Below the pieces are notes generated by a model that saw nothing but the letters and a program-made list of their open reading frames with translations, ran no database searches and was not told where the DNA came from. A stretch of 56,039 nucleotides of DNA. Source: Candidatus Levyibacteriota bacterium (GTDB lineage: Bacteria; Patescibacteriota; Microgenomatia; Levybacterales; UBA12049). The stretch covers positions 1 through 56,039 of the forward strand of contig PJMG01000003.1 in assembly GCA_003173895.1 (NCBI GenBank), in the 5' to 3' direction. Made by a program: the position numbers and the translations under genes. Below are positions 2,034-42,463 of the stretch, one piece after another (position 1 is the stretch's first letter; each line of letters opens with the position of its first letter).

Positions 2034-3065
2034 ATGCAAAAAATTATTGTTACACATAAAAATCCTGATTGGGATGCTATAACGAGTGTTTGGATTTTAA
2101 AAAAATTTTTACCAGGATGGGGAAATGCTAATGTGGAGTTTGTAAATGCGGGAGAAAGGTTGGAATTACAAATAGTAAGGGGTCCTGTCGCGACTTTCCC
2201 TCCCAAAAGTGCTCGCAATGGGTCTAATGCTGATGCATTAAATGCTGCGCGCTCTTGGAGCCCTTCCAGTCGCACCACCCCTGCTTCTGAAGAAAATACT
2301 ATTGAGATTGTTGAAAATAAAGAGATTATCCATGTTGATACAGGAATGGGACCATTAGATCATCATCAAACTTCAGATATGAACACTTGTGCTACTAGTC
2401 TCTGCTGGTTTTATGTTAAAGCTAAAAATCCAGAATTTAAAGATATGGATGCTGTAAAAATTGAATCAATTAACAAAATTGTTAAGTATGTAATTCTACT
2501 AGATCATTTTCAGGAAGTATATTTCCCAGACGCTGCATCAGATATATATGAATTTGCTCTTTATGGACTTATCGAAGGTTTTAAAATGGAATTCCCAAAT
2601 GACGATAATAAATGTTTAGAGTTTGGTTTTACATTATTAAATGCTGTATCTCATAGATTTGAGCAGAAAATATGGGCTGAAAATGAAATTAAAGAAAAAG
2701 GAATTGAGTTTGAAACTAGATTTGGAAAGGCGATGGGAATTGAGTCATTAAATGATGAAGTAGTAAAGTTAGGGCAAAAAATGGGATTTGTAATAGTGAT
2801 AAGAAAAGATCCTAGAAAAGGTTATGCACGAGTGAAGGCAATACCTGAAAAGAATTTAGAGTCTAGAGTTCAGAGTTCAGAATTGAAAAAAACTGGTATT
2901 GATTTGACTCCAGTTTATGAGAGATTAAAAGAAAAAGATCCAGCAGCTTCGTGGTTTTTACATGTTTCTAAAAAAATGCTCTTGAATGGTAGTGCTAAAA
3001 ATCCTAAAATGAAAGCAACAAAGTTAAATTTGAAAGAAATTATTGAAGTAGTAAAGGAGATTTAA
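2034..3065 (+). CDS. DHH-family phosphoesterase (NrnA-like) carrying two in-frame repeat insertions
   Basis: THKNPDWDAITS (DHH motif I/II-like) and DTGMGPLDHHQ (DHH motif); insertions at 2179-2281 and 2850-2887. Confidence 0.6.
   Translation: MQKIIVTHKNPDWDAITSVWILKKFLPGWGNANVEFVNAGERLELQIVRGPVATFPPKSARNGSNADALNAARSWSPSSRTTPASEENTIEIVENKEIIHVDTGMGPLDHHQTSDMNTCATSLCWFYVKAKNPEFKDMDAVKIESINKIVKYVILLDHFQEVYFPDAASDIYEFALYGLIEGFKMEFPNDDNKCLEFGFTLLNAVSHRFEQKIWAENEIKEKGIEFETRFGKAMGIESLNDEVVKLGQKMGFVIVIRKDPRKGYARVKAIPEKNLESRVQSSELKKTGIDLTPVYERLKEKDPAASWFLHVSKKMLLNGSAKNPKMKATKLNLKEIIEVVKEI
2179..2281 (+). repeat. family B element (B2) inserted in frame in the DHH gene
   Basis: GGGGTCCTGTCGCGACT...AGTCGCACCACCCC; core nearly identical to B4; translated as RGPVATFPPKSARNGSNADALNAARSWSPSSRTTP. 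Confidence 0.8.
2850..2887 (+). repeat. family E AT-rich repeat (E3) in frame in the DHH gene
   Basis: aagaatttagagtctagagttcagagttcagaattgaa matches E1/E2b (aatttagaatctagagttcagaatt). Confidence 0.7.
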
Positions 3066-3394
3066 TGGAAGATTGTATTTTTTGTAAAATAGCTACGCAT
3101 CAAATAAGTAAAGACTTTATTTATGAAGATGAGGAGATTATGGTTTTTCCCGATATTCATCCTATTAAAGAAAAACATCTTTTAATTATTCCTAAAAAAC
3201 ATTATGTAGATTTTATGCAGCTAGAAGATGATAAATTAATGGCTAAAATAAAGAATAAGATTCAAGATTTAGTAAAGGAACATAAATTAAAAAATAATGG
3301 TTTTAGAATAGTAGTTAATGGTGGAGGGGCGCAGGCTATAGATCATCTTCATTTTCACCTCACAGGACCTTGGGGTAAAGCTGCAGACATGTAA
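3065..3394 (+). CDS. HIT-family (histidine triad) nucleotide hydrolase
   Basis: C-terminal HLHFHL histidine triad; start overlaps the upstream stop (TAATG); AAGGAG Shine-Dalgarno (SD) motif. Confidence 0.85.
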   Translation: MEDCIFCKIATHQISKDFIYEDEEIMVFPDIHPIKEKHLLIIPKKHYVDFMQLEDDKLMAKIKNKIQDLVKEHKLKNNGFRIVVNGGGAQAIDHLHFHLTGPWGKAADM

Positions 3395-3426
3395 AAGAGA
3401 CAATTGTTTCTTTAGGTGTCTACATT

Positions 3427-3455
3427 TTGACATTCTCCTTAAAATGTTGTAACAT
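3427..3455 (+). promoter_or_regulatory. putative sigma70-type promoter for ORF 3496
   Basis: TTGACA (3427-3432), 17-nt spacer, TAACAT (3450-3455). Confidence 0.35.
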
Positions 3456-3495
3456 TACCTTCATAATGTCCTATAACAATTAAGACACTGTATTT

Positions 3496-4029
3496 ATGAG
3501 TGAATTTAAACCTTATTCCATGGCTGATTTTAGAGAAAGACAAAAATGGAGAAAAGAGCAACAAAGCTGGAGAGATCAGTCTAATATTGAGATTGGCTCT
3601 TTTGACAGTGAAAATGGTCTAAGTTATTTTGATTTCAAATTTAGCCGACCATCTGATCTTTCTACCAAAAAAGCTAGATTTTTAATGTCAGACAGAAGCA
3701 GTAATATAGAAGTTATTCTTAGAGGTAAAGATCTAAATACAGATAAGCATTTTGTACTACAAAATAATGGTATTATTTCTGTAAATGATCAGGGAGGCTG
3801 GCATATTCTAATAGATAATAATTGGGGTGATATTATTTCTAATGTGGTGAATCAAGTAGAAAATTTAGCAGACGAGCTAATTCCGAGATTTGAGGGAATT
3901 TTTGATAATGAGATTAATAAGTTATATATACTTAAGTCAAGACTTGAAGTATTTAAAGAAGCTGATAATTGGTTAAATGGAGATGACGCTACTCCCAGTA
4001 TCCTAGAAGGAGATAAAATTCCCGCCTAA
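3496..4029 (+). CDS. hypothetical protein
   Basis: 177-aa ORF, no recognisable motif. Confidence 0.5.
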   Translation: MSEFKPYSMADFRERQKWRKEQQSWRDQSNIEIGSFDSENGLSYFDFKFSRPSDLSTKKARFLMSDRSSNIEVILRGKDLNTDKHFVLQNNGIISVNDQGGWHILIDNNWGDIISNVVNQVENLADELIPRFEGIFDNEINKLYILKSRLEVFKEADNWLNGDDATPSILEGDKIPA

Positions 4030-4045
4030 TTTACTCAAAATTTTG

Positions 4046-4054
4046 TGCTATAAT
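4046..4054 (+). promoter_or_regulatory. extended -10 box (TGcTATAAT) upstream of rpsU
   Basis: tgctataat about 70 nt before the rpsU ATG; the leader contains the D1 palindrome and a GAGAGGGGG SD. Confidence 0.4.
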
Positions 4055-4084
4055 ATTTATACTTCTAATTTCATTTGAAATTTG

Positions 4085-4102
4085 ATCCGCCAGCTGACGG
4101 AT
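4085..4102. repeat. family D GC palindrome (D1, one mismatch), in the rpsU leader
   Basis: atccgccagctgacggat. Confidence 0.8.
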
Positions 4103-4123
4103 ATTGAGAGGGGGTGTTTTTAT

Positions 4124-4324: not shown

Positions 4325-4710
4325 ACAACAAAGTAAAAACTTTAATTTTTGTTGAAAGTAGGTATAAAATTAACAGAAAGCGAATTAAAGCAACTGTTGA
4401 GAGAGTTTTAAAAACTCAAAATTTAACAGGAAATGTAGAAGTTTCTATAGCTTTCGTAGGTGATCGTAAAATGCGAGAGCTATCTCGCAAATATAAGAAT
4501 GAAGATAAAACTCGTAATATTTTATCTTTTTCATTTGCTGAGGGAGAAATGACTGTCATGCCACCTGATATTTTAAGACTAGGGGATATAGTAATTTCTT
4601 ATCCCTATCTTATTAAAGAAGCTGTTGAATTTGAAGAATTAGTGGATGATAGAATTGATATGTTAGTCGAACATGGTTTAATGCACTTACTAGGACTTCA
4701 CCACGAGTAG
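4321..4710 (+). CDS. ybeY: rRNA maturation endoribonuclease YbeY
   Basis: HGLMHLLGLHHE zinc-binding motif at the C-terminus; ATGA overlap with rpsU. Confidence 0.85.
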   Translation: MNNKVKTLIFVESRYKINRKRIKATVERVLKTQNLTGNVEVSIAFVGDRKMRELSRKYKNEDKTRNILSFSFAEGEMTVMPPDILRLGDIVISYPYLIKEAVEFEELVDDRIDMLVEHGLMHLLGLHHE

Positions 4711-4770
4711 AATTTAGAATCTAGAGTTCAGAATTAAGAATTCTGAATTATGAATTTTGAATTCTAAATT
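4711..4770. repeat. family E AT-rich palindromic element (E1)
   Basis: aatttagaat...attctaaatt outer pairing; inner ttcagaatt-aag-aattctgaa; first 32 nt are the exact reverse complement of 6326-6357. Confidence 0.8.
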
Positions 4771-4776
4771 CTTATT

Positions 4777-6258
4777 ATGGTTTTTTATAGAAAATATCGT
4801 CCACAAAAAATAGAAGATTTAGATAGTAAATCTCTTCAAGAAAGTTTATTTGCGATACTTTCTAAAAAAGAAATACCGCATGCTCTTTTATTCGCAGGAC
4901 CAAAAGGGCTTGGTAAGACTTCTACAGCTAGGATAGTAGCAAAGGTAGTTAATTGTACTAATCGCGGTAAAAATATAGAACCTTGTAATAAATGTGAACA
5001 GTGTATTTCTATCACTAATGGTTCTAATATAGATGTTTTGGAGATTGATGGAGCATCTAATCGGGGTATTGAAGAAATTCGTGATTTAAAAGAGAAAATT
5101 AGAGTTTTTCCGTCCTCTGCTTCTAAGAAAATTTATATTATCGATGAAGTGCACATGTTAACTACAGAAGCTTTTAACGCACTTTTAAAAATAGTAGAAG
5201 AACCACCTGAATATGTCATGTTTATTTTCGCGACTACAGAACTGGAAAAAGTTCCTGAAACGATTTTATCTCGCTGTTTTATAGTTAATTTTAAAAAAGC
5301 TACACAAAGTGAAGTAATACATTCACTTAAAAGAATTGTAGAAGGTGAAAAAATTAATATTACAGATGGAGCCCTAGAAGAAATTGCTAAATATTCAGAA
5401 GGTGGATTTAGAGATGGAGCTAAATATTTAGAAGAAGTTTCTACATTTGCTTCAGATAAAAAAATTGACATAGAGGATGTCAGAAAAATCTTAGGAACTA
5501 GTGGCATTGAACAAAGTTCTATAGAGTTTTTAGAAGCTCTAATAAAAAAAGATTTAAAAAAGAGTTTAGAAATTTTAAAAAATTTAGAAGAAAAAGGCAG
5601 CGATGCTAAATATTTCGCTTCAAATTTACTTCAGATTTTACAAGATTCTTTAATGGCTAAAAATGGTTTTGAGATGAAAAATAAAATTGATGAGAATTTA
5701 GAAGATATTTATTTAATGCTGGAAATATTTTCAGATGCTGCACTAAAAATTAAAAATGCTATTTATCCATTCTTACCAATTGAAATGGGAGCAGTTCATT
5801 ATTTTTTAATAAAAAATAATGATGAATTAGGAAGTAGGAATCAGGAAGTAGGAAACATAAAAAATAATAATAGTAATTCTAGAAAAACGATAGAAGATTT
5901 AGAGAAAATGGCGATGACTAAAAAGATTGTTGAATTCAGAATCCATCCGCCAGCTGGCGGATCAGAATTAAAGGATAAAAAAATTAATACTGAGGGAAAA
6001 ATCCAACAGGGTAATCTACATGATCAGAAAGATTTATTGGACAATTTAATTTATAAAGTAAAAGCTGATAATTTTTCTCTGGCTGGAGTTTTAAGAAGTT
6101 TTAAGAGTTATGAAATTCAAGCAGATCAAATAGTTTTAAAAACCAAGTATAAATTTCATAAACAAAAATTAGAAGAAGCCAAAAATTTAAGCGCTATTGC
6201 AAAAGCTTTAAAAGAAATAACTGGAAAAAATCTTAAAGTTCTGGTAAGCTTGGAATAA
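4777..6258 (+). CDS. dnaX: DNA polymerase III subunit gamma/tau
   Basis: Walker A GPKGLGKTS, zinc module CNKCEQC, DEVHML, SRC motif; contains D2 and a ggaagtaggaatcaggaagtagg repeat. Confidence 0.9.
   Translation: MVFYRKYRPQKIEDLDSKSLQESLFAILSKKEIPHALLFAGPKGLGKTSTARIVAKVVNCTNRGKNIEPCNKCEQCISITNGSNIDVLEIDGASNRGIEEIRDLKEKIRVFPSSASKKIYIIDEVHMLTTEAFNALLKIVEEPPEYVMFIFATTELEKVPETILSRCFIVNFKKATQSEVIHSLKRIVEGEKINITDGALEEIAKYSEGGFRDGAKYLEEVSTFASDKKIDIEDVRKILGTSGIEQSSIEFLEALIKKDLKKSLEILKNLEEKGSDAKYFASNLLQILQDSLMAKNGFEMKNKIDENLEDIYLMLEIFSDAALKIKNAIYPFLPIEMGAVHYFLIKNNDELGSRNQEVGNIKNNNSNSRKTIEDLEKMAMTKKIVEFRIHPPAGGSELKDKKINTEGKIQQGNLHDQKDLLDNLIYKVKADNFSLAGVLRSFKSYEIQADQIVLKTKYKFHKQKLEEAKNLSAIAKALKEITGKNLKVLVSLE
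5945..5962. repeat. family D GC palindrome (D2) in frame in dnaX
   Basis: atccgccagctggcggat, translated HPPAGGSE. Confidence 0.85.
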
Positions 6259-6259
6259 T

Positions 6260-6293
6260 AAGAATTTAGAATTCTGAATTTATAATTCAGAAT
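6260..6293. repeat. family E hairpin (E2a)
   Basis: attctgaatt-tat-aattcagaat perfect 10-bp stem immediately after the dnaX stop. Confidence 0.7.
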
Positions 6294-6325
6294 GTAAATA
6301 GGAATATTTATTTATAAAGATCCAT

Positions 6326-6357
6326 AATTCTTAATTCTGAACTCTAGATTCTAAATT
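6326..6357. repeat. family E repeat (E2b), inverted copy of 4711-4742
   Basis: aattcttaattctgaactctagattctaaatt is the reverse complement of aatttagaatctagagttcagaattaagaatt. Confidence 0.85.
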
Positions 6358-6380
6358 ATAGCGAAGGTAGGTGATATTTT

Positions 6381-6708: not shown

Positions 6709-6871
6709 GCAGTATGCTTTCACAATTTTTGGTGTCGCTCAGGGAAGTGATTGAAATTTTAAGAAAGTATTCGGACTTCGCTAGTGGAATTTTCTCACCA
6801 ATAGTAATCTAACCTTTGAATGCCTCTTTAGAGAAAATTCCAATTCACCAAAAATTGAAAAGACAAACTGC
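6709..6871 (+). repeat. family A' nested-hairpin element (A'1)
   Basis: Outer stem gcagtatgctttcacaatttttggtg / caccaaaaattgaaaagacaaactgc; inner ggaattttctc / gagaaaattcc; tcgctcagg and ttcgctagtgg boxes. Confidence 0.8.
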
Positions 6872-8234: not shown

Positions 8235-8499
8235 CGTCTTTGCGAGCAAAGCACGGCAATCCGTGATATGTATAAAAAGCAAGGATATACTTATATTCTA
8301 ACTAACATAACAAATAAGGTTTTAGATACAGGTTCTACAGATAATCTAATAAAAAGGATTTATATGATGAGATTATAAAGTAATATTCTTTTCTTTTTAA
8401 GACTAAGATTGTTTATTTTTCAAATATAAAGTAGTATTTAACTATTATTTACCTAGATTGCTTCGTCCTGAATAAATCAGGACTCGCAACAACGACGAG
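8235..8499 (+). mobile_element. decayed GIY-YIG-bearing element bounded by family G inverted repeats
   Basis: Left end cgtctttgcgagc..gcaatccg; right end (reverse complement) cgtcgttgttgcgag..gaagcaatc; encloses a truncated GIY-YIG ORF. Confidence 0.55.
8268..8378 (+). pseudogene. truncated GIY-YIG nuclease-domain remnant (36 codons)
   Basis: MYKKQGYTYILTNITNKVLDTGSTDNLIKRIY resembles the Y.YIL.....LY.G.T.NL..R motif; the second Tyr is degenerate and the stop is premature. Confidence 0.45.
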
Positions 8500-8508
8500 A
8501 GTACTTTT

Positions 8509-9117
8509 ATGAAAACACCAAAAGCAATTGAAAATTTAATTAATTCTTTTGAAAAGCTTCCTGGTATGGGACATAAAAGTGCTCAAAGACTTACTTTTTA
8601 TCTCCTGCATGTCCCACAGACTCAGTTAGATAGTTTTGCAGAAAGTTTAAAAAACCTAAAGACTAAAACTCTCTTCTGTTCTAACTGCATGATGATTGAT
8701 GAAACAGATCCGTGCAGTATTTGTTCAGATTCTAGCAGGGATCAAAATATTATTTGTGTGGTAGAAGATCCTGTAGATGTTTTAGCACTGGAAAAAGGTG
8801 GAACATATAAAGGTCTTTACCACGTTCTTCACGGTAAAATAGATCCTCTAAATAATATTGGACCAGATGAAATATATTTGGAACAATTGTTCCAAAGGGT
8901 AAAGGGTGAAGGGGTAAGGGTAAAAGAAATAATTCTGGCGACAAATCCCACGATGGAAGGTGAGGCTACTGCTATGTATATAGCTAAACAGTTGAAAGCA
9001 ATAAATCCTGAGCTAAAAATTACGAGAATTGGACGCGGACTGCCAATTGGGGCTGATATAGAATATGCAGACGATATGACTCTTAAAAATGCAATGGAAG
9101 GAAGAAGTGAAATATGA
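8509..9117 (+). CDS. recR: recombination protein RecR
   Basis: LPGMGHKSAQRL HhH, C4 zinc motif CSNC..CSIC, Toprim region; F1 insertion. Confidence 0.9.
   Translation: MKTPKAIENLINSFEKLPGMGHKSAQRLTFYLLHVPQTQLDSFAESLKNLKTKTLFCSNCMMIDETDPCSICSDSSRDQNIICVVEDPVDVLALEKGGTYKGLYHVLHGKIDPLNNIGPDEIYLEQLFQRVKGEGVRVKEIILATNPTMEGEATAMYIAKQLKAINPELKITRIGRGLPIGADIEYADDMTLKNAMEGRSEI
8895..8914 (+). repeat. family F G-rich 20-mer (F1) in frame in recR
   Basis: aagggtaaagggtgaagggg; 19/20 identical to 14372-14391; translated RVKGEG. Confidence 0.7.
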
Positions 9118-9993: not shown

Positions 9994-10830
9994 ATGGCAG
10001 AAGAGAAAAGAAAATTAGGGCAGTTAATTCTAGCGCGTCATGGAGAATCTATGCATAACGTAGATAAATCTCATAGAGAGATGAGTAGCCGAGGAGTAGA
10101 TTATGATGCTTCTCAAAATTATTTAACAGAACTAGGTATAAAACAAGCTACAGAACTAGGAGAATATTTAGCTGACCTCTTTAAAGATACGCCTTCAAAA
10201 CTTATTAGAATTTATTCTTCTAAATCCCCGCGCGCTGAACAAACAGCCGATATAGTAGTAAATATTCTTAATAATAAACGTAAGAATAAACCAGATCATG
10301 CAGTTCGTACATATGAACTTGATAGCAGATGGAGAGAACAATCATTAGGTTTAGGTGAACCTCATCTAGCAAAAAATCATAATTTTTTGGTTCAACGTCA
10401 TGATGACTATTTTAGAAGCATAAATGGTAATCTAAGATTTAGGTTTGAAAAAAAACCTATTGTAGCTGAAGAGTTATCTGAGGCAGAGAGAAATATAATT
10501 GATGATTTAACTAAAGAATTAAATCTCTTAGGTAATGAAATATATGGTGAAAATTTAACAGATGTAGCTGTAAGAGAAAAAGATTCAGCTGCTGATTTAG
10601 AAGAATTCTTAAAAGAAGAGGGAGCAGTATCTATAATAATTACCCATAAAGGTTCGATGATTGCTTCCTTACAAGCTCTTATTAATAAAAATGTTGATGG
10701 AATTGTAGAGTTTATAAATGCCAATGGTAGTCCAGATAATTGTGATCTAGTAGTTTATAACTATGAACCTGATGCTTCTCGCAGAGAAAATAAATGGCAA
10801 TTACTAAGTTGGTTAGGAAAAGCAGCCTAA
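9994..10830 (+). CDS. histidine phosphatase family protein (PGM-like)
   Basis: LILARHGESMHN catalytic RHGE motif. Confidence 0.65.
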   Translation: MAEEKRKLGQLILARHGESMHNVDKSHREMSSRGVDYDASQNYLTELGIKQATELGEYLADLFKDTPSKLIRIYSSKSPRAEQTADIVVNILNNKRKNKPDHAVRTYELDSRWREQSLGLGEPHLAKNHNFLVQRHDDYFRSINGNLRFRFEKKPIVAEELSEAERNIIDDLTKELNLLGNEIYGENLTDVAVREKDSAADLEEFLKEEGAVSIIITHKGSMIASLQALINKNVDGIVEFINANGSPDNCDLVVYNYEPDASRRENKWQLLSWLGKAA

Positions 10831-13017: not shown

Positions 13018-13035
13018 TTTGATATAAAATATATC

Positions 13036-13056
13036 GGGGTCCTGTCGCACCACCCC
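13036..13056 (+). repeat. family B minimal (collapsed) element B3 in the cysS leader
   Basis: ggggtcctgtcgcaccacccc equals the fused 5' and 3' ends of B1/B2; TAAAAT box 5 nt upstream; ATG 8 nt downstream. Confidence 0.7.
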
Positions 13057-13064
13057 TCATTTTT

Positions 13065-14561
13065 ATGAAATTAAAAATTTATAACACTAAATCCAGAACT
13101 GTGGAGGAATTTAAACCATTAAAAGATAAAGTAGTTAATCTTTATGCTTGTGGAATGACTGTTTATGATAATGCGCATATAGGTCATGCCAAAAAATATA
13201 TTGGGGATGATATTTTAATTCGTGTTTTAAAACATGCAGGTTATAACTTAAAACACGCCATGAATGTTACTGATGTGGGACATTTAACTTCAGATCAGGA
13301 TACAGGGATGGATAAAATGGAAAAAGGTGCACGAAAATATGGACTGTCAGTTTGGGATGTAGCTAAAAAATTTGAAGCACAATTTTGGGATAGTATGGAT
13401 GCAGTTGGAAATAATCGTCCTGATATTTTAATGCACGCAACTGATTTTATTAAAGAACAAATGAATCTGATAAAAATTTTAGAGAAAAAAGGCTATACTT
13501 ATACCATAGAAGATGGAGTCTATTTTGATACTTCTAAATTTCCACATTATTTTGATCTATCTCATCAAAATCCAGAAGAATTAAAAAAAGGCGCGAGAGT
13601 AGAATTCGTCGCAGGTAAAAAAAATGTGGCAGATTTTGCACTTTGGAAGTTTAGTTATCCAAAAGGAGTGAGTTTTGAAGAGTATAAGAAAGAGATTACT
13701 TCGTATTCACTCACAAAGACGGAAATTACTAAAAGGCAAATGGAATGGGAGAGTCCATGGGGTTTAGGTTTTCCTGGTTGGCATATAGAATGTAGCGCAA
13801 TGAGCTTAAAGGCGCTAACTAATTTTGACCCTTCGACTCCGCTCAGGGTCGATGGTAACTATACCATCGATATTCACACAGGTGGTATAGATCATATTAA
13901 TGTTCATCATACTAATGAAATCGCTCAAAGCGAAGCTGCAACGGGTAAAGAATTTGTTCGATATTGGGTACACCATAATTTCCTGATGGTAAATGATGAA
14001 AAAATGAGTAAAAGTTTAGGTAATATTTTCACAGTACAAGATGTAATGGAAAAAGGATTTAAGCCAATGGTTCTTCGTTATTTATTTCTAACTGGACATT
14101 ATCGATCGGAAATGAATTTTACTTGGGAAAGTTTGGAAGCAGCACAAAAAGCATATGATAGATTATTGATGGAAGTTTATAATTTAAAAGGGCATGTTGG
14201 TTCTATTAATAAAGAATTTTTATCTTCTTTTGAAGGAGCACTTTATGATGACTTAAATACTGCCAAAGCAATCGCTATTATTTGGGAATTAATAAAATCC
14301 AATATTGATCCTTCGGAAAAACTCTCTACATTAAAAATCATGGATGAAGTTTTAGGACTAAAATTGTTTGGAAGGGTAAAGGGTCAAGGGGAAAGCGAAA
14401 AGCAAGAAATACCAAAGGAAATTGAACAGTTAAAAATAAAAAGAGAGGAATTTAGAAAAAATAAAGAGTTTAAAAAAGCGGATGAAATAAGAAAAGAGAT
14501 TGAAAATAGAGGATATGAAGTAATAGATACTAAATCAGATACAGTAATAAAGAAAAAATAA
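13065..14561 (+). CDS. cysS: cysteine--tRNA ligase
   Basis: HIGHA and KMSKS motifs, GWHIECSAM; two in-frame repeat insertions. Confidence 0.95.
   Translation: MKLKIYNTKSRTVEEFKPLKDKVVNLYACGMTVYDNAHIGHAKKYIGDDILIRVLKHAGYNLKHAMNVTDVGHLTSDQDTGMDKMEKGARKYGLSVWDVAKKFEAQFWDSMDAVGNNRPDILMHATDFIKEQMNLIKILEKKGYTYTIEDGVYFDTSKFPHYFDLSHQNPEELKKGARVEFVAGKKNVADFALWKFSYPKGVSFEEYKKEITSYSLTKTEITKRQMEWESPWGLGFPGWHIECSAMSLKALTNFDPSTPLRVDGNYTIDIHTGGIDHINVHHTNEIAQSEAATGKEFVRYWVHHNFLMVNDEKMSKSLGNIFTVQDVMEKGFKPMVLRYLFLTGHYRSEMNFTWESLEAAQKAYDRLLMEVYNLKGHVGSINKEFLSSFEGALYDDLNTAKAIAIIWELIKSNIDPSEKLSTLKIMDEVLGLKLFGRVKGQGESEKQEIPKEIEQLKIKREEFRKNKEFKKADEIRKEIENRGYEVIDTKSDTVIKKK
13828..13852 (-). repeat. family C repeat (reverse orientation) in frame in cysS
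   Basis: gacccttcgactccgctcagggtcg, translated DPSTPLRVD, between GWHIECSAM and DIHTGGIDH. Confidence 0.7.
14372..14391 (+). repeat. family F G-rich 20-mer (F2) in frame in cysS
   Basis: aagggtaaagggtcaagggg translated RVKGQG. Confidence 0.7.
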
Positions 14562-14689
14562 TGTCATCTCTATGAGTTTGGATTTCAAGAGCATGGCCTG
14601 AGTGTCTCGCCCGCTAATGCCTGAGTTTAGCGATGGCGAGCGGGAACAAAGGATCTCGTTCTAGATTCTTCACTTCGTTCAGAATGACA
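14562..14689. repeat. composite repeat: family H GC hairpin (14606-14644) plus reverse family C unit (14651-14689)
   Basis: ctcgcccgctaatgcctgagtttagcgatggcgagcggg; ggatctcgttctagattcttcacttcgttcagaatgaca. Confidence 0.65.
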
Positions 14690-14703
14690 GCTATACTAAC
14701 TTT

Positions 14704-15068: not shown

Positions 15069-15234
15069 AGAGTATACTTTTCGCAATTTTTCGACACGCT
15101 CGCGTACTTTGTTTGTGGAGATAGATAATATTCAAACTCGCTAATGGAATTTTCTCACCAAGGTTTGTTATAGATTTTATAATTTAATATTAAGAGAAAA
15201 TTTCAAATGTCTCAAAATTGAAAAAGCATACTCT
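15069..15234 (+). repeat. family A' nested-hairpin element (A'2)
   Basis: agagtatacttttcgcaatttttcgaca / tgtctcaaaattgaaaaagcatactct; inner ggaattttctc / gagaaaatttc; more than 90% identical to A'3 outside a variable spacer. Confidence 0.85.
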
Positions 15235-15300: not shown

Positions 15301-15795
15301 ATGTCAAAGAAAAAGGTAAAAAGCCAAAGACGAGATTCTTCGGCTTCGCTCAGAATGACAAGAGTACTTAAAAAGTTTTTTACTTCGGTAACTCCTTTTA
15401 CCCGCGCCTTAACTTTAATTTTACTCATTATTCTTCCAATTTTAGGTTTTAAATTAGGACAGCTTTATCAGAAAAATATTGATTTTAGAAATATCCCTGT
15501 AGAATTTTGCATGAGAGCTAGAAGTGCGAAAATTATAGACATCCGTTTAACTGATAGTGGGAAAACTTTTAACGCTAATGTAGGTGATAGTATAAAACTA
15601 AATTTACCAAGTAATTTTACCTGGAGTGTAGATACAGGTCCTGATGATATAGTGGATAAAATTTCAGATAACCAATATGTAGCTTTAAAACCAGGAACAG
15701 CAACTATTCAAGGTTATGGCAGACCAGCTTGTCAACCTGGGATGTTATGTTCACAGTTAGTAGTTAATTTTACTGCAACAGTAGAGATTAAATAA
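15301..15795 (+). CDS. hypothetical membrane-anchored protein (N-terminal TM, beta-rich C-domain)
   Basis: 164-aa ORF; the N-terminus contains a family C repeat. Confidence 0.5.
   Translation: MSKKKVKSQRRDSSASLRMTRVLKKFFTSVTPFTRALTLILLIILPILGFKLGQLYQKNIDFRNIPVEFCMRARSAKIIDIRLTDSGKTFNANVGDSIKLNLPSNFTWSVDTGPDDIVDKISDNQYVALKPGTATIQGYGRPACQPGMLCSQLVVNFTATVEIK
15329..15360 (-). repeat. family C repeat (reverse) in frame at the N-terminus of ORF 15301
   Basis: gacgagattcttcggcttcgctcagaatgaca translated RRDSSASLRMT. Confidence 0.7.
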
Positions 15796-16625: not shown

Positions 16626-17240
16626 ATGGATAAAATTAAAAGTTGGTTTAAAAAATTAAAAAGAATGAAGCTTAGTAAAATGCATTTAGACTATATTGCT
16701 GGGCTTTTAACCATTCCTGTTCTTTTGACTGCTATTTTAATCAACTTTACTAATTTAGATAAAAATAAAACTGTTACTCCTCCGCCAGTTGGCGGACCTA
16801 CCAGCTCACCTAACTCTAAGGTAATCGTAATAACACAACCAGTAAATAATACTCAGCCTACACCTGATGCTCAAACTTGTACTAAAAGCATAGGTCCTAT
16901 ATCGATTACATATCCTACTGAAGGTCAGAATGTTTCTGATAATCCACTTTGTATAAATATTGATTATTCCAATAATAATTATTGTTCTGTGGTTTGGTCA
17001 TATAGAATAAATAATGGTTCTTGGTCAGCGTATAATAGTGATGAGCCATGTTTATATAATTTACCCTCAGGTTCTGTCCAATTCCAACTACGTGTTCAAA
17101 GTACAGTTTCTAACAGCAGTGAAACATTAACCCGTAATTTTACTTATTCTGGAACTAATAACGGTCCAACACCCACGCCAACTCCCAGTAATACTTCTAC
17201 TCCTACGCAAGCTGTGGCTTCTTCATCGGCTGGAATATAA
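16626..17240 (+). CDS. hypothetical secreted/membrane-anchored protein
   Basis: 204-aa ORF, GGGAGGA SD, N-terminal TM, PT-rich C-terminus. Confidence 0.5.
   Translation: MDKIKSWFKKLKRMKLSKMHLDYIAGLLTIPVLLTAILINFTNLDKNKTVTPPPVGGPTSSPNSKVIVITQPVNNTQPTPDAQTCTKSIGPISITYPTEGQNVSDNPLCINIDYSNNNYCSVVWSYRINNGSWSAYNSDEPCLYNLPSGSVQFQLRVQSTVSNSSETLTRNFTYSGTNNGPTPTPTPSNTSTPTQAVASSSAGI
16791..16806. repeat. family D palindrome variant (D3) in frame
   Basis: tccgccagttggcgga translated PPVGG. Confidence 0.7.
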
Positions 17241-24330: not shown

Positions 24331-24336
24331 TAACAT

Positions 24337-24453
24337 AGAGGGATGGCGCCATAAGAGGTCGAAAGGTATTAGGCTCCAAACCTAAATAGCAGAGCGAAGA
24401 ATGTAGTACATTTTGAAGTGAAGCCATCGCAGGTTCGAATCCTGCTCTCTCTA
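24337..24453 (+). tRNA. tRNA-like gene: Trp-type anticodon loop (CCA), aberrant D region, 43-nt extra arm
   Basis: Acceptor AGAGGGA/TCTCTCT (one G.U); T arm GCAGG-TTCGAAT-CCTGC; anticodon arm TTAGG-CTCCAAA-CCTAA; 117 nt overall; no canonical D stem. Confidence 0.45.
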
Positions 24454-24473
24454 CGATCGTTTATCCTATAATC

Positions 24474-27753: not shown

Positions 27754-28281
27754 ATGGCACGAAGTTTAAATAGCGTTCAACTAATTGGAAATTTAACTAG
27801 AGATCCGGAATTGAGATATACACCGAATGGTACGGCAGTAGTAACTTTGGGAATAGCGACTAATAGAAGTTGGACGACAGATAGCGGAGAAAAAAAAGAA
27901 GAAGTTGAATATCACAGAGTGGTAGCTTGGAATAAGTTAGCTGAACTTTGTAGTCAATTATTAAGTAAAGGTGCTAAGGTTTATGTGCATGGTAGATTGA
28001 CTACTAGAAGCTGGACAGGCCAAGATGGAGCACAGAAATCTACCACTGAGATAATAATTGATGACATGATGGTTCTTTCAGGTAAAAAAGAAGGAGCAGA
28101 TTTTGGTGGAGGATCATATACTCCTACTCAAAAACCAGCTCAAACTAAAAAAGAAGCCAGCCCGCTAGCCAAGCAAAGCGAGGCGGCCGGGGAACCTAAA
28201 GAAGAAGTTCAAAAACATCCAGAAGAAGATGTCCCACAGAATTTAACAGATGATGTGGCACCGGATGATATACCTTTTTAA
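27754..28281 (+). CDS. ssb: single-stranded DNA-binding protein
   Basis: LNSVQLIGNLTRDPELRYTPNG OB fold, acidic tail DDIPF; H2 repeat in the linker. Confidence 0.9.
   Translation: MARSLNSVQLIGNLTRDPELRYTPNGTAVVTLGIATNRSWTTDSGEKKEEVEYHRVVAWNKLAELCSQLLSKGAKVYVHGRLTTRSWTGQDGAQKSTTEIIIDDMMVLSGKKEGADFGGGSYTPTQKPAQTKKEASPLAKQSEAAGEPKEEVQKHPEEDVPQNLTDDVAPDDIPF
28157..28193. repeat. family H GC-rich hairpin (H2) in frame in the ssb linker
   Basis: ccagcccgctagccaagcaaagcgaggcggccgggga; related to 14606-14644. Confidence 0.55.
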
Positions 28282-31185: not shown

Positions 31186-31331
31186 CGCTCGCATATAAAT
31201 TTTTATCTTGGTTTCACGCTCGCTAATCTTAATTTATTCCAAGGCTTTGTCTGTCATCCTGAGCGAAGTCGAAGGATCTCGTCCTTTTACGCTGTTAGCT
31301 CGAATGAAACAGAAAAAATTTAAATGCTCGC
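31186..31331 (+). repeat. family A-type element (A4) with a family C unit nested at 31252-31284
   Basis: cgctcGCATATAAATTTTT / AAAAAATTTAAATGCtcgc outer stem; tcacgctcgctaatc box; tgtcatcctgagcgaagtcgaaggatctcgtcc inside. Confidence 0.65.
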
Positions 31332-31380: not shown

Positions 31381-32379
31381 ATGGATATTAAAGAAAATAT
31401 AATTTTAGCTCCATACACGACTTTTCATATTGGTGGTCCTGCGGATTATTTTTTAATAGCTAAAAATACGCAGGAATTAATGGATGGAATTAAATGGGCG
31501 GAAGAAAAGAATATTTTATTTTTTATTTTAGGAAGCGGGGCAAATATTTTAGTGGGGGATAAAGGATTTAGAGGATTGGTGATCAAAAATGAGAGTTCAC
31601 AGGTCACAGTTAAAAGTTCACAGGAAGTGTCATTACTTACTGCGGATTCGGGAATTACTATTGCTGAGTTAATTACAATAACCACAGAAAAAGGACTTTC
31701 AGGTTTGGAGCATTTTGCTGGAATTCCATCTACTTTAGGTGGAGCAATTTGGCAGAATTTACACTTTTTATCCGCTGATCGATCGGAAACTGTTTTTATC
31801 GGAGATATTTTAGAAACAGCTATCATAATTCCAAATGTTACGTCTTTGCGAGGAACAGAAAGTGACGAAGCAATCTCAAAAGGATTGCCACTCGAACAAA
31901 GTTCGCTCGCAATGACGAGGACGGTAAATAAAGATTATTTTAAATTTGCTTATGATTACAGTATTTTACACGACACTCATGATATCGTTTTATCTGCTAC
32001 TTTAAAATTAAAACCAGAATCTCGTGAAGTTATTAAATCTACTATTAATGCTAATTTAAAATGGAGAGCTGAAAAACATCCAGAAAATGCCGTGAATTGT
32101 TCAGCGGGATCAATCTTTAAGAAAATTCCTGCCCGCCTCGCAAGCGAGAGCGTTGCGGGCAGGGAAGGCGGCGCTGGACGTTTTATTCAACAAGTCGGAT
32201 TAAAAGGACATAAAATAGGTGGTGCTCAAATATCAGAAAAACATGCTAATTTTATTATTAACGCAGGAAATGCGAAGGCTTCTGAAGTTTTATCTTTAAT
32301 AAATTTAGTTAAGGAAAAAGTTAAAAAGGAGCTTGGATTAGATATGGAAACTGAAATAAGTTTGGTTGGAGAGTTCTAG
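31381..32379 (+). CDS. murB: UDP-N-acetylenolpyruvoylglucosamine reductase
   Basis: FHIGGPADYF, GSGANIL, AGSIFKK...GLKG..IGGAQISEKHANFIIN; two in-frame repeat insertions. Confidence 0.9.
   Translation: MDIKENIILAPYTTFHIGGPADYFLIAKNTQELMDGIKWAEEKNILFFILGSGANILVGDKGFRGLVIKNESSQVTVKSSQEVSLLTADSGITIAELITITTEKGLSGLEHFAGIPSTLGGAIWQNLHFLSADRSETVFIGDILETAIIIPNVTSLRGTESDEAISKGLPLEQSSLAMTRTVNKDYFKFAYDYSILHDTHDIVLSATLKLKPESREVIKSTINANLKWRAEKHPENAVNCSAGSIFKKIPARLASESVAGREGGAGRFIQQVGLKGHKIGGAQISEKHANFIINAGNAKASEVLSLINLVKEKVKKELGLDMETEISLVGEF
31841..31919. repeat. family G palindromic MITE (both GIY-YIG-element ends, no cargo) in frame in murB
   Basis: cgtctttgcgagg..gaagcaatc-tcaaaag-gattgcc..ctcgcaatgacg; translated TSLRGTESDEAISKGLPLEQSSLAMTR. 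Confidence 0.75.
32128..32163. repeat. family H GC-rich hairpin (H3) in frame in murB
   Basis: cctgcccgc-ctcgcaagcgag-agcgtt-gcgggcagg; translated PARLASESVAGR. Confidence 0.75.
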
Positions 32380-32380: not shown

Positions 32381-33394
32381 ATGAAAAATAGATTTACAGA
32401 AATTGATGATCTTCGTGGTTTAGCTATTTTCTTCATGATTTTGGTTCATACTTCAGTTTATTTTCTGACTGATTCGTTTATGAAATTTTTATGGAATTTC
32501 TCTGAATGGTCAGTAGCAGGATTTATCTTTTGCTCGAGTTTTGTCTACTTTATAAATAGTAAAAATAATTTTTGGAATGAGAAAAAAATTGATTTTAAAC
32601 TATATTGGCAGTATTTATTAAAACGCTTAAAACGTTTAATTATTCCGTATTATATTTTTCTGTTAGTTTTTATATCATTACTTTTATTAACTCACAATAA
32701 ACTGCTTAACACAAAATACATAATTTTTTCTACATTTTTAGTGGGTGGGGTAGATATAAGTTGGTTAGTTTTACTTTTTCTTATTTTTGCTCTTATGTTT
32801 CCTCTTATAAAATATCTCTTTGAAAATTATAAAAAAATATTTTATTTAGGATTTTTTCTTTCGTTTCTTTCTCTTATTTATTTCTTATTTATTCATAATT
32901 TAAATTTTAATTATCGTTTTATTTTTTGGTTACCATGGAGTTTTATAGTTTTTTATACGGTTTTATTTACTGATTACTCTTTGAGAGAAAAAAGTAAATT
33001 GAGTAATAAGTATTTTTATCTTTTTTCAATATTATTTTTTGTCTTTTCATTTTTATTTTCATTTATTTATCTTCAGCAAAATTATTTAAATTTAGATCAA
33101 ATTAGTAATAAATATCCACCTAATCTTTATCATATTTCATTTGGACTATTAGGAGTTTTAGGGTTTTATTTATTATCTAAAATTGGAATATTTAATCCGC
33201 CAGCTGGCGGACTTAGAAAGTTTTTAAATTTTTTAAGTTTGAATTCTTATTCAATTTATTTTATTCACTATACGATTTTATATTTTACAGCCAGTTGGTT
33301 TGTAAAGAATAGTAATTGGTTTTTATTTACGATTTTTGTTTTTATAACTAGTTTAATTTCGCAAAAAACTTTTAATTTGATTTTAAAAAAATAA
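32381..33394 (+). CDS. acyltransferase family 3 membrane protein
   Basis: MKNRFTEIDDLRGLAIFFMILVH start typical of acyltransferase_3; multi-TM. Confidence 0.7.
   Translation: MKNRFTEIDDLRGLAIFFMILVHTSVYFLTDSFMKFLWNFSEWSVAGFIFCSSFVYFINSKNNFWNEKKIDFKLYWQYLLKRLKRLIIPYYIFLLVFISLLLLTHNKLLNTKYIIFSTFLVGGVDISWLVLLFLIFALMFPLIKYLFENYKKIFYLGFFLSFLSLIYFLFIHNLNFNYRFIFWLPWSFIVFYTVLFTDYSLREKSKLSNKYFYLFSILFFVFSFLFSFIYLQQNYLNLDQISNKYPPNLYHISFGLLGVLGFYLLSKIGIFNPPAGGLRKFLNFLSLNSYSIYFIHYTILYFTASWFVKNSNWFLFTIFVFITSLISQKTFNLILKK
33196..33211. repeat. family D GC palindrome (D5) in frame
   Basis: tccgccagctggcgga translated NPPAGGL. Confidence 0.85.
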
Positions 33395-36558: not shown

Positions 36559-36725
36559 AAGCTCATTGAAAGTACTTTTTAAACAGGCGTTCGCTAACTT
36601 TGTTTATAATTAAAATTATATTTCATCTCTCACTCGTGAAAGTTTGCTATTAGTTTAACATTGAAACATAAAATATTAAACAGCAAACTTCCAATGCTCT
36701 TTAAAGAGTACTATTCAATTCACTT
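36559..36725 (+). repeat. family A nested-hairpin element (A2)
   Basis: aagctcattgaaagtacttttt...ctcactcgtgaaagtttgct...agcaaacttcc aatgctc...; starts 2 nt after the trhO stop. Confidence 0.8.
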
Positions 36726-38817: not shown

Positions 38818-38981
38818 AAGCTCGCAGAATGTATTTTAAAAGCCGCTCGGAAACATGAATCTTAAATTAATATTAAATTGTCATTCTCGCTCGTGAAAGT
38901 TTACTACCAAAGTCAAAAAGAAATTTAAGAATATTAAACAGTAAACTTTCAATGCTGTTTAAAATACATATCTGCTCGCTC
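38818..38981 (+). repeat. family A nested-hairpin element (A3)
   Basis: Outer gcagaatgtattttaaaagc / gctgtttaaaatacatatctgc; inner tgaaagtttact / agtaaactttca; compensatory versus A1. Confidence 0.8.
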
Positions 38982-40337: not shown

Positions 40338-40375
40338 TTTATCTAAAAATTTAAAATTTGTTATTTAAAATTATT

Positions 40376-41275
40376 ATGGATACTTTAACACCGGAAAAAG
40401 TTTTAGACTTAAAATTAAAAGCTAATAGAATTAGAGAGTTAATTATAAATATGTTAGTTAAAGCAGGTAGTGGTCACAGTGGGGGGCCGCTCGGAATGAC
40501 TGATATTTTTACTGCGATGTATTTTCATATTTTGAATCATGATCCTAAAAATCCACTTATGCCGGATCGTGATCGACTAGTTTTATCCAATGGACATATT
40601 TGTCCAGTCCAATATGCGACATTGGCGCTTGCTGGATATTTCCCGTTAGAAGAATTAGATACTCTGCGAAAAATTAATTCTAGACTTCAGGGTCATCCTC
40701 ATCGAGGAACGCTCCCAGGATTAGAAACTACTTCTGGACCCCTAGGTGAAGGATTATCTCAAGGGATTGGTATGGCCTTAGCTGGAAAAATGGATAAGAA
40801 AGATTATCATGTTTATGTTTTAACTTCAGATGGTGAACATCAGGAAGGAAATACTTGGGAAGCGATGATGATGGCAGCGAAATATAAATTAGATAATTTA
40901 ACTGTAGTAATAGATCGAAATAGAATTCAAATAGATGGTGATACAGAAAAAGTTATGCCATTAGATCCATTTAGCGATAAATATAAAGCATTTAATTTCG
41001 AGGTTTTTGAAATTCCAGGCAATGACATTCAACTTTTTATAGAAACAGTAGAAAATGCTAAACAGGTTAAAAATAGTCCTACTGTTATTATTGCTGATAC
41101 TATTCCTGGTAAAGGTGTAAGTTATATGGAAAATAATTATATTTGGCACGGAATTCCACCTGATTTGCAGGATGTACCAGGTGCACCTAAAAAAGGTGAA
41201 CAAGCTAAGGTAGCGTTAGAAGAATTAGGAAAAATTGAAGAAAGTTTAAAAAGGGAAGGAGGCATATCTAATTAA
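40376..41275 (+). CDS. transketolase, N-terminal subunit
   Basis: GHSGGPLGMTDI, SNGH, GPLGEG, LTSDGE ThDP-binding motifs. Confidence 0.9.
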   Translation: MDTLTPEKVLDLKLKANRIRELIINMLVKAGSGHSGGPLGMTDIFTAMYFHILNHDPKNPLMPDRDRLVLSNGHICPVQYATLALAGYFPLEELDTLRKINSRLQGHPHRGTLPGLETTSGPLGEGLSQGIGMALAGKMDKKDYHVYVLTSDGEHQEGNTWEAMMMAAKYKLDNLTVVIDRNRIQIDGDTEKVMPLDPFSDKYKAFNFEVFEIPGNDIQLFIETVENAKQVKNSPTVIIADTIPGKGVSYMENNYIWHGIPPDLQDVPGAPKKGEQAKVALEELGKIEESLKREGGISN

Positions 41276-41288
41276 TGAGTAATGCTTG

Positions 41289-41427
41289 AGAGTTAGCTTT
41301 TCACAATTTTTCGACACGCTCGCTCCAAGATCGCTAATGGAATTTTCTCACCAAAGTTTGTTACTGATTTTATAACTTAATATTAAGAGAAAATTTCAAA
41401 TGTCTTAAAATTGAAAAAACTAACTCT
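41289..41427 (+). repeat. family A' nested-hairpin element (A'3) between the tkt halves
   Basis: agagttagcttttcacaatttttcgaca / tgtcttaaaattgaaaaaactaactct; inner ggaattttctc / gagaaaatttc. Confidence 0.85.
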
Positions 41428-41461
41428 TTAAATACTTGATGTTTTAATTAAAAATTAATAT

Positions 41462-42463
41462 ATGTTAAATCCTAAATATAAATTAAATCCTAAAATTTTT
41501 GACACTGATGTGGAAATAAATCCTACGAGGGCGGGGTTTGGTGAGGGATTATTAGAATTAGGAGATAAAAATCCTAATATCGTCGGATTAACTGCGGATC
41601 TTTCAGAATCTACTAAAGCGGATAAATTTGAAAAAAAATATCCTGATAGATTTTTTGATGTAGGGGTAGCAGAGCAGGATATGGCAGCAGTAGCAGCTGG
41701 TCTAGCAGTTTCTGGTAAAATTCCTTTTATCTCATCTTATGCTACATTTAGCCCAGGGAAAAATTGGGAAACGATCAGAACTACCATTATTTATAATAAA
41801 GCGAATGTAAAAATAGCAGGACATCATTCAGGAGTCATGACTGGACCTGATGGATGTACTCATCAAGCCACAGAGGATATTGCCTCAGTTCGTTCTTGGC
41901 CGGGACTAAATATCATAGTTCCTTGCGATAGTATCGAAGCTAAAAAAGCCACGATAATTGCCGGTGATACTGAAGGGCCATTCTATTTAAGATTTAGTCG
42001 TGACAAATCTGCTGTTATGACTACCGATGAAACGCCATTTGAATTCGGGAAAATGGCGAATTTTTGGATTCCTGATTCGCCAGCTGGCGAACCTCAAGTT
42101 ACTATTTTTGCTATGGGTTACATGCTTTATTATGCACTTTTAGCTGCGAAAGAATTAGAAACTGAGGGAATTCAAACTTTGGTGGTAAATGCTCCTACCA
42201 TAAAGCCATTTGACACTGAAGGTTTGCTGGAATTCACCAAAATTTCTAGAGCTGTGGTGACAGTGGAGGATCACCAAGTTATGGGAGGATTAGGGGGAGT
42301 GATTGCGGAATATTTATCTAAAAGTACGCCTTTACCTATGGAGATGGTAGCGCTTCAAGATACTTTCGCAGAATCTGGTAAACCAAAAGAATTATTGGCT
42401 AAATATCACATGGATGTTCCAGATATTAAAGAAGCAGTGAAAAAAATTATTGGGAGAAAATAG
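41462..42463 (+). CDS. transketolase, C-terminal subunit
   Basis: FDVGVAEQDM, pyrimidine-binding and C-terminal domains. Confidence 0.9.
   Translation: MLNPKYKLNPKIFDTDVEINPTRAGFGEGLLELGDKNPNIVGLTADLSESTKADKFEKKYPDRFFDVGVAEQDMAAVAAGLAVSGKIPFISSYATFSPGKNWETIRTTIIYNKANVKIAGHHSGVMTGPDGCTHQATEDIASVRSWPGLNIIVPCDSIEAKKATIIAGDTEGPFYLRFSRDKSAVMTTDETPFEFGKMANFWIPDSPAGEPQVTIFAMGYMLYYALLAAKELETEGIQTLVVNAPTIKPFDTEGLLEFTKISRAVVTVEDHQVMGGLGGVIAEYLSKSTPLPMEMVALQDTFAESGKPKELLAKYHMDVPDIKEAVKKIIGRK
42076..42091. repeat. family D palindrome variant (D6) in frame in tktC
   Basis: ttcgccagctggcgaa translated DSPAGEP. Confidence 0.75.

Follow-up and report, generated by a model that had tools for sequence, protein, structure and literature searches.

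Short GC-rich hairpin repeats between and within the genes of a Levybacteria-like member of the Candidate Phyla Radiation, with copies in frame in conserved genes

The window analyzed here is the whole 56,039-nucleotide stretch of contig PJMG01000003.1, and its subject is a set of short repeats that lie both between and within its genes. Its base composition is 31% GC, with a GC skew that is positive throughout, and the + strand holds most of the genes. Among 185,579 species genomes, the best YchF loci belong to metagenome-assembled genomes of Candidatus Levyibacteriota (67% and 62% identity), followed by other Patescibacteria, and syntenic relatives were used for comparison (L004, L084, and L081/L082, the last two being Candidatus Levybacteria in NCBI). 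This places the host in the Microgenomates branch of the Candidate Phyla Radiation (CPR), as a Levybacteria-like groundwater bacterium with a tiny genome; its closest homologues among 5.8 billion proteins are only 62-63% identical. The original prediction, made from the sequence of this window, had proposed that palindromic repeats are inserted in frame in its essential genes, as is known from Rickettsia.

All the segments on which that prediction was built hold the sequences attributed to them, and every host open reading frame (ORF) runs through them uninterrupted. Pfam confirmed the gene names given at first: DHH, DnaX, RecR, cysteinyl-tRNA synthetase (CysRS), SSB, MurB, acyltransferase-3, the C-terminal half of a split transketolase, and YchF. 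What had been treated as one group is, however, a mixture of at least seven unrelated families, and seven (A to G) are distinguished here (Table 1). The term palindromic suits families A, D, and F and the second murB hairpin (fold z = -2.5 to -4.2) and does not suit families C and E or the ssb segment. The inserts are richer in GC than their hosts, as predicted (0.48-0.75 against 0.21-0.38 in the rest of the host gene), except for the second DHH segment, at 0.32.

Table 1. Repeat elements of the window and the places where they lie.
Family	Positions	Strand	Location	Description
A	5946-5961		dnaX	Perfect copy; read PPAGG, codon phase 2; embedded in an AT-rich GAATTCAGAAT E unit
A	16781-16796		ORF 16626-17240	One mismatch; read PPVGG
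A	25166-25181		ychF	Nested in the loop of the family B unit
A	33196-33211		Acyltransferase gene	Read PPAGG
A	42076-42091		tktC	Two mismatches; read SPAGE
A	4086-4101		Intergenic	Sole intergenic copy
B	25146-25197	-	ychF	Family A nested in loop; encodes GRDPSTPPPAGGFAQDD
B	13826-13856	-	cysS	Stem ACCCT/AGGGT; encodes DPSTPLRVD between HIECSAM and DIHTGG
B	15329-15360	-	Hypothetical ORF 15301, codons 10-20	Exact match to the B pattern
B	14647-14692	-	Intergenic, 3' of cysS	
B	31250-31287	+	Intergenic, 5' of murB	TGTCATCCTGAGCGAAGTCGAAGGATCTCGTCC
F	31841-31919		murB	Two B-like units, inverted, CGTC tags outward; encodes TSLRGTESDEAISKGLPLEQSSLAMT
G	32128-32163		murB	Encodes PARLASESVAGR within GSIFKK...GRFIQQ; fold z = -4.2
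G-like, degenerate	28157-28193		ssb, disordered C-terminal linker	About 74% identity, with gaps, to the second murB hairpin
C	8895-8914	+	recR	G-rich motif AAGGGTAAAGGGTGAAGGGG; not an insertion, not palindromic
C, second copy	14372-14391	+	cysS, variable C-terminal part	Protein at most 3 aa longer; not palindromic
E	2850-2887	+	DHH gene, variable loop	AT-rich AGAATTYAGA-type repeat; not palindromic; 91% identical to 4709-4742
D	2178-2283	+	DHH gene, in frame	Encodes RGPVATFPPKSARNGSNADALNAARSWSPSSRTTP; 77 bits; fold z = -2.5
D	1845-1989	+	Intergenic	Nested hairpin unit ending ...GAATGAC; direct repeats D3, D12; 42 bits
D, minimal	13034-13058	+	Ends 7 nt 5' of cysS start	Terminal arms only, GGGGTCCTGTCGCACCACCCC; 24 bits, E = 3e-4
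D	42480-42589	+	Intergenic, tktC / FAD-oxidase gene	82 bits; fold z = -3.2
D with nested inserts	47836-48006	+	Between minus-strand fmt and def	44 bits
Decayed unit-ssn-unit cassette	8235-8500	+	Spacer	Left unit CGTCTTTGCGAGCAAAGCACGGCAATCC, truncated GIY-YIG ORF 8268-8378, inverted right unit ...GATTGCTTCG...CTCGCAACAACGACGAG

Alignment with orthologues and PDB homologues showed the inserts to be lineage-specific, as had been anticipated. Six of the listed segments are clear insertions (the first DHH and first cysS segments, ychF, both murB segments, and tktC), and four are probable (dnaX, ORF16626, acyltransferase, and ssb). In ychF, cysS, and murB, they split motifs that are normally adjacent, which bears out the prediction. 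The ychF insert, GRDPSTPPPAGGFAQ, lies between ...VPVPDERL and EFVDIAGLV, adds about 12-15 residues, and is lacking in YchF of H. influenzae and T. thermophilus (PDB 1jal, 2dby) as well as in ten relatives. In cysS, 13 extra residues separate GWHIECSAM from DIHTGGIDH, both relative to PDB 3sp1 and 8qhp and relative to five CPR orthologues (L084, the closest, and L081, L083, L009, and L031). The two murB inserts add about 23 residues relative to PDB MurB structures and the syntenic L004 orthologue, and about 11 residues relative to L004 and PDB 4pyt, respectively. The family D copy in the DHH gene adds 33 residues relative to the two closest homologues (P0002, P0003). In an AlphaFold model of this protein built from 18 homologues, residues 45-85 form a coil with a predicted local distance difference test score (pLDDT) below 50 between two confident strands, as expected of a disordered loop. 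Finally, tktC gains about 6 residues in a loop relative to the split transketolase PDB 6yaj, dnaX 5 relative to L084, ORF16626 3 relative to L021, and the acyltransferase 2 relative to L004, and the ssb copy lies in a disordered linker that varies in all relatives. Peptides predicted to span the junctions include ...RGPVSSFPPASAR..., ...DPSTPLR..., and ...PPAGG....

The remaining segments fared differently. Three are not insertions, their proteins being of almost unchanged length: RecR is equal in length to its closest relative (L084) or one residue longer around RVKGEG, the second cysS segment goes with 3 extra residues, and the second DHH segment with no difference in length from homologues. 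ORF15301 belongs to neither group; it has no Pfam family, no orthologue of it was found, and its family B copy may be part of the 5' untranslated region should translation start further downstream.

In the relatives, these genes hold further in-frame elements at different sites. The dnaX genes of L081 (12358-13893) and L083 (3743-5341) have GC-rich inserts of their own elsewhere, near the zinc-finger region, and the recR genes of both also have their own, such as SSFAKASEGQAKL; in-frame repeat peptides thus appear to be general in this group. A second lineage-variable insertion in cysS, PKGVSFEEYKKEITSYSLTKTEITKRQ (13659-13740, residues ~199-225), is AT-rich and non-repetitive; L084 and the PDB CysRS structures lack it, and it is partly present in L083.

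Family D is an element of about 105 nt (range 88-167 nt), GGGGTCCTG...CACCCC, that forms a rod-like hairpin, and a covariance model finds exactly five copies of it in the window. These five, and the copies that L081 and L083 carry at this DHH site, share conserved arms, a variable and covarying inner stem, a third helix, and a variable center. A scan of JGI metagenomes with the 5' arm gave at least 120 matches, of which 80 loci were returned, with 65 elements complete at both ends; the counts that follow refer to these listed elements. Groundwater data sets from Rifle and Hainich are among those that contain family D. Thirty-nine (60%) are located within long ORFs at a depth of 60 codons or more; 31 of them run in the sense direction, where they read RGPV..FPPASARS...LRAVG.PS..ATP, and 8 antisense, where they read RG..GRAPDSA...GALAGGKVGAGPR. 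All but one of the 31 sense copies agree in codon phase and in length class modulo 3, whereas the 26 copies that are not deep in ORFs are mixed (14/10/2). The host genes identified by Pfam include a glycosyltransferase, Obg, UvrD, TatD, an amidohydrolase, RecF, MurD, topoisomerase I (TopA), RadA, and IF-2, and those for LeuRS (two copies in one gene), RecJ, CarA, and ComEC were recognized by eye.

The structure of family D is maintained by compensatory change. In a 54-sequence alignment, its three nested helices are 93.6% paired, against 84.2% after shuffling, and none of 500 shuffles reaches the observed value; the covariation score is 0.253 against 0.087, and pairing in slid controls is 37-50%. 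Both partners vary in five of the six inner-stem pairs. This stem occurs as 40 distinct 7-mers among 66 elements, and its partners form a helix of mean length 5.2 within an element, compared with 3.0 ± 0.1 between elements. A conserved pyrimidine-pyrimidine mismatch (columns 12/119 of alignment A7) was also seen to switch in concert (T/C or C/T) and defines two subfamilies read RGPV...ATP and RGPA...VTP. In the metagenomic LeuRS gene of L122, which holds family D elements at 2905-3026 and ~4790-4923, a third repeat-like insert, KSKVKSSPRFARLDSESERAGEAGQKSKV, occupies the site of the family D element in the LeuRS gene of L098 (4337-4458).

Strong hairpins placed exactly at the inserts might also be a sign that the elements are removed, by excision at the RNA level or by translational bypass, in which case the proteins would be unaltered and the open frame incidental. 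Stop codons are scarce in GC-rich DNA, and two or three frames are open in many family D elements (in 47 of the 65, a second sense frame is free of stops); that three DHH genes have family D at one identical position also resembles intron homing. We nevertheless regard removal as very improbable: a single phase and length class are kept by the sense genic copies and not by the non-genic ones, the peptide is conserved, the elements are only 16-120 nt long, and no ribozyme or intron in Rfam matches them. Indeed, searches of Rfam at both gathering and E-value thresholds found no family that matches any element.

Families B and F are built from a common unit. The family B unit reads TGTC-AT(C/T)CT-GAGCGAAGYCGA-AG(G/A)AT-CTCG, with five copies in the window, three of them within ORFs; its 25-nt pattern has two exact matches in the window against none expected. 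The family F element in murB is 79 nt long (fold z = -4.1). Across both families, the layout is a [C/T]GTC tag followed by a 5-bp stem, a loop of 11-31 nt that opens with GAG, usually ends with GAA, and carries a conserved GAGCGAAG-type motif, the complementary half-stem, and C(T/C)C, giving a CTC or CC tail. We aligned 20 units from the window and from relatives L002, L003, L014, and L021, in ychF and elsewhere. Eighteen open with CGTC or TGTC, the first stem position is A-T in 18, and the second is T-A or C-G. The stem occurs in seven variants (ATTGC/GCAAT, TTTGC/GCAAT, ACTGC/GCAGT, ATCGC/GCGAT, ATCCT/AGGAT, ATTCT/AGAAT, and ACCCT/AGGGT), and 98 of the 100 stem cells are paired; when half-stems were re-paired among units, 2000 trials yielded 81 paired cells on average and 92 at most. 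Because the variants are compensatory and the shuffles fall short, it is pairing rather than sequence that is kept in these units. We also observed an F-type dimer (VTASEAKQSQEIASS..PRND) at one identical ychF site (~10670-10790) in L002, L003, L014, and L021, a site that is empty in the window, and a half-unit in L003 (10178-10222) at the ychF loop where the window has its combined B and A insert; individual loops thus act as hot spots.

The shortest repeat, family A, is the perfect 16-nt palindrome TCCGCCAGCTGGCGGA, with six copies in the window at up to two mismatches and none in 100 shuffled sequences. The five genic copies all lie in the same codon phase and give (P/S)PAGG; under uniform choice, the chance of one shared phase is about (1/3)^4, and the two unused phases, which would give SASWR and RQLA, are open too. 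One copy lies in the loop of the ychF family B unit and another in the AT-rich E unit of dnaX, so that the elements are nested in one another. Each genic copy goes with 2-6 extra residues relative to relatives or sits inside another insert. Family A, perhaps with families C and G, could instead be a functional DNA motif built in place by mutation or gene conversion under selection, the coding constraint setting its phase; an uptake or recognition sequence, a protein-binding site, and a methylation-linked iterated palindrome such as HIP1 are the candidates. Such a motif would suit a perfect palindrome that contains CAGCTG, is evenly scattered at about one copy per 9 kb, has five of six copies in genes, which matches the 83% coding density, keeps one phase in genes, and brings such small net gains; in recR, moreover, the family C motif stands in a segment of native length and recurs at the same site elsewhere. 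However, iterated motifs of the uptake-sequence or HIP1 kind accumulate without adding residues, whereas extra residues relative to orthologues accompany each family A copy; one of the copies is located within the loop of another element, and the copies have a GC content of 0.62-0.75 in hosts of 0.21-0.38. Apart from chance matches in high-GC genomes, where counts of short patterns over loci are too noisy, family A was absent from about 340 kb of related CPR loci. We therefore consider a selected motif unlikely.

Families G, C, and E are smaller. Family G comprises GC-rich hairpins CCTGCCCGC...GCGGGCAGG in the second murB insert, in a degenerate ssb copy that is not significantly hairpin-forming (fold z = -0.35), and in one intergenic copy. 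Alignments and the lack of a palindrome ruled out families C (recR and the second cysS segment) and E (the second DHH segment) as inserted palindromes. The C motif GGGTAAAGGGTGAAGGGGTAAGGG, found at 8890-8925 in recR, at 14368-14395 in cysS, and at 7520 in L083, has four G-runs and thus looks G-quadruplex-like in a 31% GC genome; it is kept at the same recR site in L083 (Levybacteria), and the closest relative is AT-rich and of equal length there. AT-rich inverted repeats of AGAATTYAGA units bracket dnaX (4708-4778 and 6255-6360), with 93% complementarity over 41 nt and 92% over 39 nt, the upstream block being itself a palindrome; related units are in frame in the DHH gene and dnaX, and homologues have similar SEFRVQNS-type peptides.

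It is for these minor families that chance, low complexity, or an assembly artefact, with the extra residues as ordinary loop variation, has most to offer. It fits the recR, second cysS, and second DHH segments, the ssb segment is only weakly similar and unstructured, and families of two copies can arise by chance. As an account of the repeats as a whole we find it barely credible: no copies are expected in shuffled sequence, the covariation controls never reach the observed values, and assemblies made independently from different samples contain family D. The shuffles, the covariation controls, and the covariance model refute it for families A, B, D, and F.

One spacer of the window contains a candidate for an associated enzyme. 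It opens with ACGTCTTTGCGAG, as does the murB insert, and closes with the inverted ...CTCGCAACAACGACGAG; between them, a 36-codon ORF (MYKKQGYTYILTNITNKVLDTGSTDNLIKRIY...) matches positions 1-28 of Pfam GIY-YIG (E = 4.4e-4). Ssn proteins are single-domain GIY-YIG proteins of about 100 aa that act as site-specific endonucleases on single-stranded DNA, and their genes are typically flanked by CGTC-type hairpins (NTS/SRM) beside which Ssn cuts (Chenal et al. 2025, PMC11893778); Patescibacteria are not mentioned in that paper. We found intact cassettes of this type in four Saccharibacteria loci (L060, L085, L087, and L090), where a GIY-YIG gene of 103-104 aa is bracketed by inverted TGTC-ATCCTGAA-CTTGT-TTCAGGAT-CC hairpins. 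These are canonical units (stem of 8 bp, loop of 5 nt, CC tail). About 10 nt separate the end of the upstream hairpin from the ATG, and the downstream one overlaps the stop codon. The cassette of the window has the same spacing but is decayed. Among 80 YchF loci, L060 was the only one with a GIY-YIG gene. From these arrangements, an Ssn-type nuclease is the probable cognate enzyme of the B/F units.

[quoted passage not shown] The core of the original prediction, an RPE-like process, is thereby supported by the lineage-specific inserts, the compensatory changes, the resemblance to CGTC-tagged REPs, and the metagenomic copies of family D. The elements appear to be mobile, or to have been so formerly. 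In the mechanism that we propose, non-autonomous hairpin repeats would spread through the genome, and selection would filter the insertions: genic copies would survive if their length is a multiple of three, their peptide is compatible with a loop, and the site is a tolerant loop or linker. The surviving copies would be read in the phase that gives a peptide rich in Pro, Gly, Ser, Ala, and Arg and, being in frame within tolerant loops and linkers, would be translated as extra loops of conserved proteins. For B/F, the mobilizing or processing enzyme would probably be an Ssn-type nuclease acting on single-stranded hairpins, which may thus take part in their spread; no enzyme is assigned to families D and A. 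The mechanism may be linked to replication and act on single strands, which fits, in small numbers, the location of all five window copies of family D on the strand of positive GC skew and the common orientation of four of the five B units.

Several observations weigh against this interpretation. Three genomes (50-55% protein identity) carry family D at one DHH site, and the closest homologues lack it, which simple random insertion does not explain; a hot spot, homing, and precise loss are candidates, and the identities of 76% between copies within a genome and 66% between same-site copies do not separate independent insertion from conversion. Family A, with a net gain of 2-6 residues, could be a selected DNA motif rather than an insertion. 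Recent gain or loss is not demonstrable at any site, the best relatives having 62-67% protein identity, and no target-site duplications were recognized by eye. Translation of the inserts is itself a prediction from the reading frames. The B monomers are not thermodynamically distinctive by the fold z test, and the B/F units have 5-bp stems and 11-31-nt loops, compared with 8-9 bp and 4-5 nt in CGTC-tagged REPs. The GIY-YIG remnant is below the Pfam gathering threshold, and the published SRM search pattern has no match in the window (0.03 expected). However, this pattern also misses the canonical ssn-flanking hairpins of Saccharibacteria and thus appears to be tuned to GC-rich stems.

A bolder version would be that CPR genomes of the Microgenomates host a large new superfamily of protein-coding palindromic elements that remodels dozens of essential proteins per genome, on a scale equal to or above that of Rickettsia, family D, with its conserved arms, covarying hypervariable inner stem, and strict codon phase, being the clearest example, and that the recurrence at the DHH site reflects homing-like insertion or precise excision through a single-stranded DNA mechanism. 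We put this forward tentatively and think it somewhat doubtful.

Other features of the window were also noted. The 3' part of a tmRNA (ssrA), with its T-arm GCAGGTTCGAATCCTGC and acceptor stem, was seen on the + strand at 24300-24456; it matches model positions 186-374 in Rfam at 19 bits (E = 3e-6), under the gathering threshold, and its 5' part may overlap with ORF 23524-24330 or come after it. ARAGORN called neither this tmRNA nor any other tRNA or tmRNA in the window. Intergenic elements of about 100 nt with a long-range hairpin form two subfamilies, GAAAGTTTGCT...AGCAAACTTTC or GGAATTTTCTC...GAGAAAATTTC, and are found at 414-513, 36608-36705, and 38865-38964, at 6778-6869, 15133-15234, and 41326-41427, and at 50767-50826. 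Each is followed by AAAATTGAAAA, and the majority lie 30-90 nt 5' of start codons; they might represent leader structures or repeats that carry promoters. An E-value search of Rfam with one such region (41295-41464), the sole one so searched, gave no match.

From a broader perspective, in-frame palindromic insertion has long been presented as a peculiarity of Rickettsia, and the CPR case suggests that it is a recurrent outcome in small, AT-rich, host-dependent genomes. A Rickettsia-like process in the CPR, with related as well as unrelated element families, would point to a general route to new surface loops of proteins. For the annotation of CPR genomes, repeat peptides inflate protein lengths, create spurious "families" of hypothetical proteins, and can lead predictions of homology and of structure astray. 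The B/F units and the ssn remnant would extend the partnership of Ssn and hairpins to the CPR, with many natural compensatory hairpin variants, and family D offers a large natural data set on the translation, movement, and tolerance by proteins of such elements.

The closest parallel is with the RPEs, palindromic repeats known to occur in frame in Rickettsia (reviewed in PMC10969869). RPE-1 to RPE-10 are palindromic repeats of ~100-150 bp in a small AT-rich genome, in frame in unrelated housekeeping genes and also intergenic, and family D is alike; it and family F are long imperfect palindromes, and the window inserts and the metagenomic copies of family D lie in frame in unrelated genes, with a conserved peptide. 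We therefore regard family D as a true RPE analogue. However, the host belongs to the CPR, the likeness described here is one of behavior, at least four families co-occur and are nested, and the inner stem of family D is hypervariable and covarying. Intragenic REPs are also on record outside Rickettsia. For the CGTC-tagged REP superfamily, which includes Neisseria dRS3/NTS and Rickettsia RPE-4/RPE-6, copies lying in frame within genes were reported from several phyla, frequently in genes for DNA metabolism and tRNA synthetases (Di Nocera et al. 2013, PMC3733652). The B/F units share with it the unpaired tag (CGTC, TGTC, or CCTC in that superfamily), a stem that opens with A-T, the occurrence as single units and inverted dimers, and some in-frame copies, including ones in tRNA-synthetase and DNA-metabolism genes. 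Their tail is CTC or CC instead of CCA, and the CPR lie outside the phyla surveyed; given the differences in stem, loop, and tail, the B/F units fail part of the definition of CGTC-tagged REPs.

The NTS/SRM-Ssn systems resemble what is seen in the CPR in their repeat-ssn-repeat layout, intact in Saccharibacteria and decayed in the window, in their directional hairpins, and in the conserved 5' tag; they differ in that the window holds no copy of the SRM pattern and in that the nuclease is known here from sequence alone. REPINs and REPs with their REP-associated tyrosine transposases (RAYTs; PMC3116915, PMC2817692) are likewise short non-autonomous hairpins with compensatory pairing and a single-copy enzyme gene flanked by repeats. 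However, REPINs are almost entirely extragenic, and the window elements have no GTAG tag; no Y1 transposase was found among the ~30 of 56 window ORFs scanned against Pfam. MITEs are defined by terminal inverted repeats together with target-site duplications and derivation from an insertion sequence; terminal inverted repeats are present in family D (GGGGT...ACCCC) and family F (CGTCxTTGCGAG...CTCGCAATGACG), target-site duplications were not recognized by eye, and no parent insertion sequence lies in the window. Yeast mitochondrial GC clusters and the nested small dispersed repeats of cyanobacteria are also GC-rich palindromes in AT-rich genomes that are occasionally in frame and insert into one another; they differ in belonging to organelles or cyanobacteria, in their unrelated sequences, and in having far fewer coding copies. 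The open full-text literature on CPR, Patescibacteria, or Microgenomates gave no description of in-frame palindromic elements, in line with the original prediction, subscription-only papers being outside this search and a prior account thus possible. Given the in-frame palindromes of Rickettsia and the intragenic REPs of other phyla, elements of this kind were already known; what is new here is the lineage, families D and A, the density and nesting of the elements, and the metagenomic evidence of family D in many essential genes.

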